Shown piece after piece: positions 29,508-29,588 of a stretch of DNA of 64,000 bases (positions are counted from its first letter, which is position 1; every line of letters begins with the position of its first letter). The notes under the pieces were generated by a model. It had not been told where the DNA came from, did not search any database, and saw only the letters and a list, made by a program, of their open reading frames with translations. Location of the stretch: the NCBI RefSeq assembly GCF_058153355.1, contig NZ_CM177019.1; one strand, given 5' to 3'. The position numbers and the translations under genes are program-made.

Positions 29508-29588
29508 TGGACCGCCATCGAGGCCTCGAACCCCGTACCATACAACAATCCTGGTTGTCGTCTGCTCTTCCTGATGAGCTAATGGCGG
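29508..29588 (-). tRNA. tRNA-like element, probably a tRNA pseudogene or relic
   Basis: Minus-strand 81 nt fold into a 7-bp acceptor stem (CCGCCAU/AUGGCGG), D-arm (GCUC/GAGC, loop with GG), 5-bp anticodon stem (ACAAC/GUUGU), T-arm (CGGGG-UUCGAGG-CCUCG) and 3' UCCA; anticodon region is non-canonical with 4 extra nt before the stem. Confidence 0.4.

Follow-up and report, generated by a model that had tools for sequence, protein, structure and literature searches.

A strictly conserved tRNA-like element of phage-tRNA ancestry at the xtpA–yahM locus of Escherichia

The locus that carries the tRNA-like element analysed here has been described previously as the source of a small peptide. In Escherichia coli K-12 it includes xtpA (b4845; 345252–345434), annotated by RefSeq as "putative transcriptional regulator XtpA", and the title of the paper by Muto et al. 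(2022) presents a peptide from a leaderless mRNA that regulates GcvB expression. A tRNA-like sequence at the xtpA locus is already published and, via xtpA, present in the K-12 annotation. The same locus and sequence were found in a stretch of 64,000 nt from contig NZ_CM177019.1 (NCBI RefSeq assembly GCF_058153355.1; hereafter the window), where an element of 81 nt at positions 29508–29588 of the minus strand is contained in the 60-residue open reading frame (ORF) that corresponds to xtpA. As far as its title tells, the emphasis of Muto et al. is on the peptide; the present analysis deals with selection at the level of the RNA, an origin from phage tRNAs, the family to which the element belongs and its binding by CsrA.

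Among phage tRNAs, argN of phage 933W is 75% identical to the element over approx. 90 nt, with the same acceptor stem, U73, CCA, 5' spacer AUCACA-A and type of T arm; it differs in its 9-nt D-loop, its single nucleotide 26, its loop CUUCGAA and its location between Q and stx, whereas the element stands alone in the chromosome. The sequences that occupy the middle slot of the tRNA arrays of phiP27, mEp460 and an IncY plasmid, as well as the 73–78-nt elements referred to below as group 2, are 82–87% identical to it and have the D-loop AUCNGGAA in common. The window element joins the AGACGACA junction of the phiP27 type to the ACAAC/GUUGU hairpin and the UUCGAGG T loop of the short type; in contrast, the hairpin loops of these relatives vary by lineage, and most of them lie between tRNA-Met(CAU) and tRNA-Thr or tRNA-Gly. 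The tRNA-like domains of tmRNA and YrlA mimic the acceptor and T arms of a tRNA without an anticodon function. The element differs from both in that it has no match to their Rfam models, another architecture and no Ro- or SmpB-associated context. In one report (PMC3399842), tRNA-Other of Bacillus cereus is described as a chromosomal pseudo-tRNA with a non-translational role and regulatory consequences. Like the element, it is tRNA-shaped and stands outside translation; unlike it, tRNA-Other flanks a pathogenicity island, and sequence and host are unrelated. We know of no link of tRNA-Other to CsrA or to phage tRNA arrays. Finally, CsrB displays the repeat CAGGA(U/A/C)G in hairpin loops (PMC7652899), a repeat to which two motifs of the element conform. 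Such loops and in vivo crosslinking of CsrA are common to CsrB, CsrC and the element RNA; CsrB has about 18 sites and no tRNA shape, whereas the element RNA has two sites.

The first-pass annotation of the window, made from the sequence alone, had described a cloverleaf on the minus strand at 29508–29588, and all the stems and loops that it listed, as well as the UCCA end, are present in the sequence. The minus-strand sequence is CCGCCAUUAGCUCAUCAGGAAGAGCAGACGACAACCAGGAUUGUUGUAUGGUACGGGGUUCGAGGCCUCGAUGGCGGUCCA, and the parts that matter for the argument, some of them seen in the minimum free energy (MFE) fold, are the following:

29508–29588, minus strand: tRNA-like element, 81 nt, with an encoded UCCA 3' end (ARAGORN, family covariance model R1, conservation)
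29567–29573, minus strand: D-loop motif CAGGAAG (GGA at 29571–29569), seen in the sequence; it matches the CsrB repeat CAGGA(U/A/C)G
29542–29561, minus strand: hairpin in place of an anticodon arm, with the stem ACGACAA/UUGUUGU of 7 bp and CAGGAU in its loop (GGA at 29551–29549) (MFE fold)
29519–29535, minus strand: T arm CGGGG-UUCGAGG-CCUCG, read from the sequence

The acceptor stem (CCGCCAU/AUGGCGG) is made of seven perfect base pairs, the D arm has a 4-bp stem and the loop AUCAGGAA with its GG, and a U discriminator is followed by the encoded CCA. The canonical tRNA body is present in this 7-bp acceptor stem, in G18G19, in a UUCRA T loop (here UUCGA) and in the pair G53–C61; U8 and A14 are also retained. 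At the position of the anticodon arm there is a hairpin with the 5-bp stem ACAAC/GUUGU and the loop CAGGAUU, for which the MFE fold favours a 7-bp stem and a 6-nt loop. This loop departs from a canonical anticodon loop, with A33 instead of U33 and U37 instead of a purine, and the junction between the D stem and the hairpin has five nucleotides (AGACG) against one in a canonical tRNA; the missing U33 and the four surplus nucleotides had been correctly noted in the first pass.

In the whole 64 kb, ARAGORN predicted a single tRNA, a tRNA-Ser(gga) at exactly 29508–29588. It predicted none in any of 40 block-shuffled copies of the window, and its tmRNA search was negative. The MFE structure of the 81-mer is the cloverleaf (−29 kcal/mol), which persists in the fold of the whole 181-nt transcript. 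When all 4227 Rfam families were searched at the gathering threshold plus E ≤ 10, nothing relevant was found at the element, and the only nearby match, a weak one, was the yahN terminator hairpin. The tRNA model (RF00005) had no match in the 64 kb at its gathering threshold (29 bits) nor in 401 nt at E ≤ 10, and the models of tmRNA and of Y RNA (YrlA) did not match at the element; true tRNAs neighbouring related loci score 48–74 bits with the tRNA model. The Rfam check suggested in the first-pass annotation fails for the element as a tRNA; nonetheless, a covariance model of its own family scores it at 77.5 bits.

To evaluate conservation, five lineages were compared, i.e., the window, K-12-type E. 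coli, E. albertii, SCPM-O-B-8794 and Escherichia sp. E1V33. The variable sites, with the Fisher test of each region versus the element, are as follows:

Element: 0 of 81
Leader: 27 of 82 (P = 1e-9)
3' end of the yahN coding sequence: 35 of 151 (P = 1e-7)
Downstream stretch: 61 of 87, with numerous indels in addition (P = 3e-25)

The YahN protein stays 90–99% identical among the lineages compared. The locus was found in 5172 of 5426 complete E. coli genomes, and the identical 81-mer is present in 4821 of 5170 E. coli records; 301 further records, of the O157:H7 lineage, differ by U68C alone, a change that turns a G–U pair of the T stem into G–C. These two main alleles account for 99.1% of the records, and other alleles for 47. 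The only disrupted element sampled among the 5170 records is that of E. coli DETEC-S792, in which an IS1 copy (6118–6815 of locus L172) follows element position 62, in the T loop (element remainder at 6001–6062).

Two small ORFs overlap the element:

29488–29670, minus strand: 60-aa ORF, xtpA of K-12 (b4845), spanning the leader and the whole element (ORF list; NC_000913.3 annotation)
29278–29518, minus strand: yahM remnant, frameshifted (marked so by RefSeq in a near-identical genome; aligned to the K-12 type)

E. coli and E1V33 have an open xtpA frame, of 60 and 59 aa respectively; in E. albertii and SCPM-O-B-8794, i.e., in two of the four non-E. coli lineages, codon 4 is a stop. A comparison of E. 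coli with E1V33 gives 10 non-synonymous and 2 synonymous codon differences for the first 27 codons of the frame, which is not the pattern of purifying selection on a protein-coding gene, and the 27 codons that lie within the element show no change at all, synonymous changes included. The gene yahM is annotated as frameshifted in the lineage of the window (about 22 genomes); strain 148 interrupts it with a nonsense mutation at codon 12, two other lineages have it divided between frames, and in E1V33 it could not be detected. Because of the codon-4 stop in two lineages and the 10:2 ratio, xtpA is not the cause of the conservation of the element, and since both ORFs are broken in other lineages, selection acts on the RNA. 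The alignments show very strong purifying selection on the element as an RNA, and this selection does not depend on either of the small ORFs. The first pass had considered the 60-aa ORF doubtful as a gene; against this doubt stands its annotation as a K-12 gene, which goes back to an experimental paper of 2022, and in favour of it are the closed frames and the ratio of changes just given.

Evidence for the origin of the element came from blastn searches against plasmids and phages, in which the match is confined to the element and approx. 8 nt of 5' spacer (29596–29508). It is 75–86% identical to sequences in the tRNA arrays of lambdoid and Shiga toxin (Stx) phages and of phage-plasmids, with E = 3e-19 for phiP27 and E = 8e-8 for 933W. 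In a sensitive blastn of 28001–31200 against the fetched phage, plasmid and viral loci, homology ends at 29599 and 29503, and no phage relatives of the flanks, YahL, YahM or the leader were detected; the leader shares with the phage spacers its last 8 to 11 nt only (to 29596–29599). The match in 933W is argN, the middle gene of ileZ-argN-argO and a canonical 77-nt tRNA-Arg(UCG) that scores 54.8 bits with the Rfam tRNA model. In phiP27, mEp460 and the IncY plasmid, the slot of argN between ileZ and argO holds instead an unannotated sequence of 80–82 nt that has the junction AGACGACA as in the element (3012–3092 of phiP27 locus L009, 3009–3088 of mEp460 locus L010 and 4009–4089 of IncY locus L004); the copy of the mEp460 type is without the T loop (GGCGGGU). 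These copies are called neither by ARAGORN, as checked on the IncY locus, nor by Rfam, as checked on the phiP27 locus. The acceptor stem of the argN-slot family, CCGCCAY/RUGGCGG, its encoded CCA and its 5' spacer are all shared by the element. Taken together, the alignments indicate that the element descends from the tRNA of the 'argN' slot of lambdoid-phage tRNA arrays. The phage relatives are cargo tRNAs of the late region, between Q and the lysis genes, and not attachment (att) sites; the element itself has no array position in a prophage late region and lies alone between yahK/yahL and yahN. A derivation of the leader from a decayed ileZ or tRNA-Met was also considered: its alignment to four phage ileZ genes is not above that of shuffles (the body alone gives p > 0.9), and its last ~29 nt reach p = 0.03 for one phage. 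Mobility of the element within E. coli was rejected, given that the extra copies, seen in some E. coli genomes and on plasmids, come from F' records, from chromosomal records that were misassigned and from the arrays of prophages.

Pattern scans of viral contigs (at least 120 loci) and of a single genome for each species (41 loci), combined with the loci from the preceding searches, yielded 83 unique full-length sequences among the matches listed, a scope that applies to all the counts of this paragraph, and these fall into two groups. Group 1 shows a 9-nt D-loop, a standard 23-nt middle and anticodon loops that are Arg(UCG), Arg(UCU) or Lys-like. Group 2 consists of 40 unique sequences with the 8-nt D-loop AUCNGGAA, 31 of them with the T loop UUCGAGG, and the anticodon arm is substituted by a plain hairpin with the core ACAAC/GUUGU and a loop of 3–7 nt that is different in almost every lineage; there are 34 distinct middles versus 15 distinct 3' 28-mers. 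The window element belongs here by its D-loop, its T loop and its plain hairpin, and with a middle of 28 nt the Escherichia copy is the longest member. ARAGORN labels group 2 sequences 'tRNA-???' or assigns them unrelated isotypes, and the Rfam tRNA model missed the copies tested except for one from Citrobacter (32.9 bits). The acceptor pair 7–66 alternates between U–A (18 sequences) and C–G (22 sequences) with 0 mismatches, and the T-stem pairs 51–63 and 52–62 vary via G–U intermediates. Alignment A4, of 27 sequences and with Escherichia left out, has 93.7% of its cells paired versus 34–57% with slid partners, and its covariation score was matched by 0 of 500 shuffles. The corresponding model R1 has a single match in the window, at 29508–29588 on the minus strand (77.5 bits, E = 1.1e-18). 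In view of this score and of the blastn match to phage tRNA arrays (E = 3e-19), the element can be taken, by homology, as more than a chance fold.

Members of group 2 are also found outside intact arrays. In five loci derived from Citrobacter, a related 75-nt element is preceded by a promoter of its own (TTGCAG, 17 nt, TATTAT) and ~58 nt of leader, and it has an intrinsic terminator, the stem of which shows compensatory changes. Four Klebsiella species retain the element, and the adjacent tRNA-Thr is intact in only one of them. ARAGORN finds no tRNA-like gene besides the element in the stretch examined at 19 of the 41 species loci, and in several of the 41 an upstream tRNA-Met is visibly decayed. 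Chromosomal array relics in which the tRNA-Thr downstream or the tRNA-Met upstream is decayed and the element intact were noted in Klebsiella (loci L142, L152 and L170, against L144), and the same loss of canonical tRNA neighbours beside an intact element in Salmonella diarizonae (L147) and Buttiauxella (L143, L151, L161 and L167).

The order of the locus in E. coli is prpR-yahO-yahN-[yahM]-element-yahL-yahK. The position between yahN and yahL given in the first pass is right, with the correction that the element also overlaps the 5' end of yahM and sits within the ORF annotated as xtpA in K-12. Upstream of it, the following features were recognized:

29677–29704, minus strand: sigma-70 promoter, −35 TTGACA (29704–29699), 16-nt spacer, −10 CATAAT (29682–29677) (consensus scan)
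29670–29671, minus strand: transcription start, at or 1 nt before the xtpA AUG (7 nt past the −10; start of a CsrA crosslinking peak, see below)
29589–29670, minus strand: leader of 82 nt, with two predicted hairpins followed by the single-stranded AUAUCACAAA (whole-transcript fold)

The promoter is near-consensus, with 11 of 12 matches, and it is kept in E. coli, E. albertii, the L132 lineage and Escherichia sp. E1V33. The start predicted at 29670/29671 lies 82 nt ahead of the element; in K-12, the CsrA peak begins with UCAUG, the feature marking the untranslated 5' region (5'UTR) begins at 345251 and the xtpA coding sequence at 345252. Published Reg-Seq data confirmed a yahM promoter with IHF as its repressor, and a regulated transcript at yahM was present in a small-RNA-enriched library. 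The gene yahL (29891–30706, minus strand) is variably present: E. albertii, Escherichia sp. E1V33 and E. coli DETEC-S792 lack it and retain promoter, leader and element; therefore the conserved unit is formed by promoter, leader and element, always convergent with yahN. In the leader, the hairpins evaluated with RNAalifold gave mixed support, and a conserved leader structure was rejected, since several pairs are broken and just one is doubly compensatory. A 13-nt stretch of the leader, UAUCUUACGCAUC (29635–29647, minus strand), on the 3' side of its first hairpin, is invariant in the five Escherichia lineages. At ~29744/29745, approx. 40 nt upstream of the −35, the window lacks a 40-nt stretch of K-12-type E. 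coli, TAAAAAAGCACCAGTAGTGGTTTCGCAGCCATGCGGTGTA, and the 60 nt around this gap are unusually divergent from that type.

The transcript appears in the study of Potts et al. (2017), who mapped CsrA by crosslinking and immunoprecipitation followed by sequencing (CLIP-seq), as peak_41, of 180 nt, with a log fold change of 1.66 and an adjusted P of 5.5e-8; these authors classed it as yahM 5'UTR. The peak runs from the UCAUG at the predicted start to 15 nt past the CCA, and its read maximum falls on U41/U42 of the element (window ~29547), directly 3' of the GGA of the hairpin loop. It contains only two GGA motifs, namely those of the D-loop (CAGGAAG) and of the hairpin loop (CAGGAU), 20 nt apart. Four canonical tRNA genes were looked for in the CLIP table and none of them was present; among the entries covered from the integrated-transcriptomics table, yahM does not occur. 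In the same study CsrA also binds GcvB. Regarding the 3' end, Term-seq (Adams et al., 2021) located one at K-12 position 345390 in three growth conditions. This corresponds to G57 of the element (window 29532), a nucleotide of the T stem's 5' strand, and it has a low intrinsic-terminator score and lies within a Rho-dependent region. The strongest Rho signal is a termination region published for the interior of yahM, at K-12 345585 (roughly window 29337 when counted from the start codon of yahM; score 6.2, p = 3e-33), and so strong a Rho-dependent region fits poor translation of yahM. A truncated RNA could form an alternative helix, C1–U7 with A48–G56, which ends 1 nt before the Term-seq end; as a cause of that end this helix is possible but statistically unremarkable (z-score −1.0), and it is 14 kcal/mol weaker than the cloverleaf. 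Positions 58–81, which lie beyond the end at G57, are invariant as well.

According to these observations, the element is the descendant of a tRNA of the phage argN slot and has lost decoding, given the 5-nt D/anticodon junction, the absence of U33 and the conversion of its anticodon arm into a plain hairpin. It is transcribed from its own near-consensus sigma-70 promoter, and its D-loop and hairpin loop display the two GGA motifs at which the published CLIP-seq places CsrA in vivo. The structured RNA may then be the functional unit, a tRNA-shaped module of a small RNA of ~140–180 nt that acts via protein binding, with CsrA as the one partner for which there is evidence and tRNA-processing enzymes as further candidates; xtpA and yahM would be lineage-specific passengers. 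That the element is a functional, non-decoding RNA of phage-tRNA ancestry seems to us quite probable, and we favour the complete model with rather less assurance, as a reading that is probable on balance. The claim that CsrA binding is the core of its function is doubtful. The same reserve applies to a broader reading, in which the RNA is under selection, a new phage-derived family has been kept several times by its hosts (independently in Escherichia, Citrobacter, Klebsiella, Buttiauxella and others) as the true phage tRNAs beside it decayed, the remodelled anticodon arm offers GGA motifs to CsrA in E. coli, and the GcvB effect is exerted via the RNA and CsrA; the joint occurrence of all these is tentative. 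As a speculation, the binding of CsrA to GcvB could offer a peptide-free route from this locus to GcvB.

Several points weigh against the functional RNA and its binding by CsrA as proposed here. The folding energy of the 81-mer has a z-score of just −1.88, the z-scores of the whole transcript are likewise unremarkable, and folding energy by itself is weak evidence for the element. In the family scans the 5' 20–25 nt were fixed by the search pattern, and only the 3' half represents independent conservation. No 3' end at the CCA is listed in the Term-seq data; a mature CCA-ended species is therefore hypothetical and the main form may be something else. The enrichment of the CLIP peak is only modest, and a sponge would be expected to have more GGA sites than two. 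Many members of the family are without GGA in the hairpin loop, so that its ancestral function cannot have been to bind CsrA. Finally, the published model, to go by the title of Muto et al., assigns the GcvB phenotype to the XtpA peptide.

This last model is the rival that needs the closest attention. According to it, the functional product is the 60-aa XtpA peptide, translated from a leaderless mRNA, and the tRNA-like part is coding region that perhaps stabilises the messenger. The annotation as a putative regulator, the title of the source paper, the AUG at the mapped 5' end and the frame that is intact in E. coli and E1V33 all speak for it; nevertheless, in E. albertii and SCPM-O-B-8794 the element is still 81/81 identical behind a stop at codon 4, the first 27 codons changed mostly at non-synonymous sites, and the absence of synonymous changes in the 27 element codons is beyond what coding constraint can produce. 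In addition, no PHROGs or NCBIfam family matched the 60-aa ORF, YahL or YahM, and the homologues in Citrobacter and in phage arrays are found in quite different contexts. We consider this explanation rather unlikely as an alternative, although it could be compatible with the preferred model, as a young peptide riding on an old RNA. A second reading that starts from an ORF takes the element as a cis-acting leader of yahM, in which the cloverleaf hides the Shine-Dalgarno sequence and start codon, and CsrA or refolding controls translation and Rho termination. The yahM AUG (29518–29516) is indeed inside the 3' strand of the acceptor stem (cgAUGgcgg), a placement shared with the usual E. coli type, and GAGG in the T loop, five nucleotides ahead of it, is a candidate Shine-Dalgarno sequence; the class given to the CLIP peak, the Rho region inside yahM and the alternative helix of the truncated RNA agree with such a role. 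This reading is very unlikely in view of the frameshift, nonsense mutation, fragmentation or absence of yahM in the lineages named above, of the weakness of the alternative fold and of the terminator that directly follows the homologous element in Citrobacter.

The remaining possibilities deny the element an RNA function or restore the original one. The first-pass annotation had favoured a tRNA pseudogene or relic, possibly an old integration scar, for which the AT-rich surroundings with a variably present yahL, the aberrant anticodon arm, the lack of an Rfam tRNA match and the phage copies that are clearly without T loop (mEp460 type) could be invoked. Derivation from a tRNA and the loss of decoding hold, but an inert relic is hardly credible for a sequence that has 0 of 81 variable sites across species against 27 of 82 in its leader, a conserved promoter of its own, and a transcript that is bound by protein. 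The scar is contradicted by the full length of the element, by its 3' half not being repeated in the 64 kb (the 3' 25-mer has no second copy with up to 3 mismatches), by the annotation of a near-identical genome, which shows no integrase in the 2.5 kb to the left or to the right, and by relatives that are cargo tRNAs. Sequences shaped like a tRNA are common integration targets, and IHF acts at the promoter region, so that the conserved entity might be a DNA site (attB or a protein-binding site) rather than an RNA; we regard this as most improbable, given that the sole disruption sampled in 5168 genomes is an IS1 insertion and that variation in the family obeys RNA pairing (U–A to C–G at 7–66, G–U intermediates in the T stem). 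As for a working tRNA-Ser(GGA), in accordance with the ARAGORN label, the encoded CCA, the canonical T loop and the GG of the D-loop are what such a tRNA should have; this reading nevertheless deserves practically no credence with A33, the four surplus junction nucleotides, no Rfam tRNA match at E ≤ 10, and homologues with 3–7-nt loops that are unrelated in sequence and receive no isotype or unrelated ones. Moreover, a long variable arm defines tRNA-Ser, and the element is without one.

Within the literature searched, the descent from phage argN appears to be new, and so does the existence of a group 2 family that was retained repeatedly, as do the selection on the RNA rather than on xtpA or yahM and the location of the CsrA CLIP maximum at the remodelled hairpin. 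The element resides in the best-studied bacterial genome, and its conservation is stricter than that of the protein-coding gene beside it. Current annotation nevertheless accounts for the locus with xtpA and yahM, two small ORFs that other Escherichia lineages have lost. If the preferred model is true and the RNA is the functional unit, this annotation and the published peptide model need to be revisited. Unannotated relatives are present in many enterobacterial genomes and Stx-type prophages, where they are overlooked by tRNA finders or receive arbitrary isotypes, with consequences for tRNA gene counts and for the roles of phage tRNA arrays beyond the supply of rare-codon tRNAs. The CsrA crosslink provides a concrete and testable handle.

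One further feature of the neighbourhood is on the opposite strand:

29380–29417, plus strand: hairpin of the terminator type, GCCCAC...GUGGGC and then a UUUUUU run, inside yahM and ~120 nt downstream of yahN (weak Rfam match)

This hairpin is kept in E. coli, E. albertii and the L132 lineage, and yahM–yahN is listed in published data as a convergent excludon. Elsewhere in the window, the Rfam family naRNA4 (RF02564) gave five matches of 59.7–74.9 bits, at 20253–20424 (minus strand), 25198–25269 (minus strand) and 43681–43843 (plus strand), with tandem pairs at two of these sites; they are probably repeats of the type of repetitive extragenic palindromes (REP) and bacterial interspersed mosaic elements (BIME). 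Among the loci used for comparison, STnc100 and AsxR were matched downstream of stx2 in 933W (locus L008, 4584–4789, plus strand, and 4791–4843, minus strand), and a Yokenella prophage region (L148) contains matches to two cspA thermoregulator leaders, at 9094–9515 and 11616–12041.

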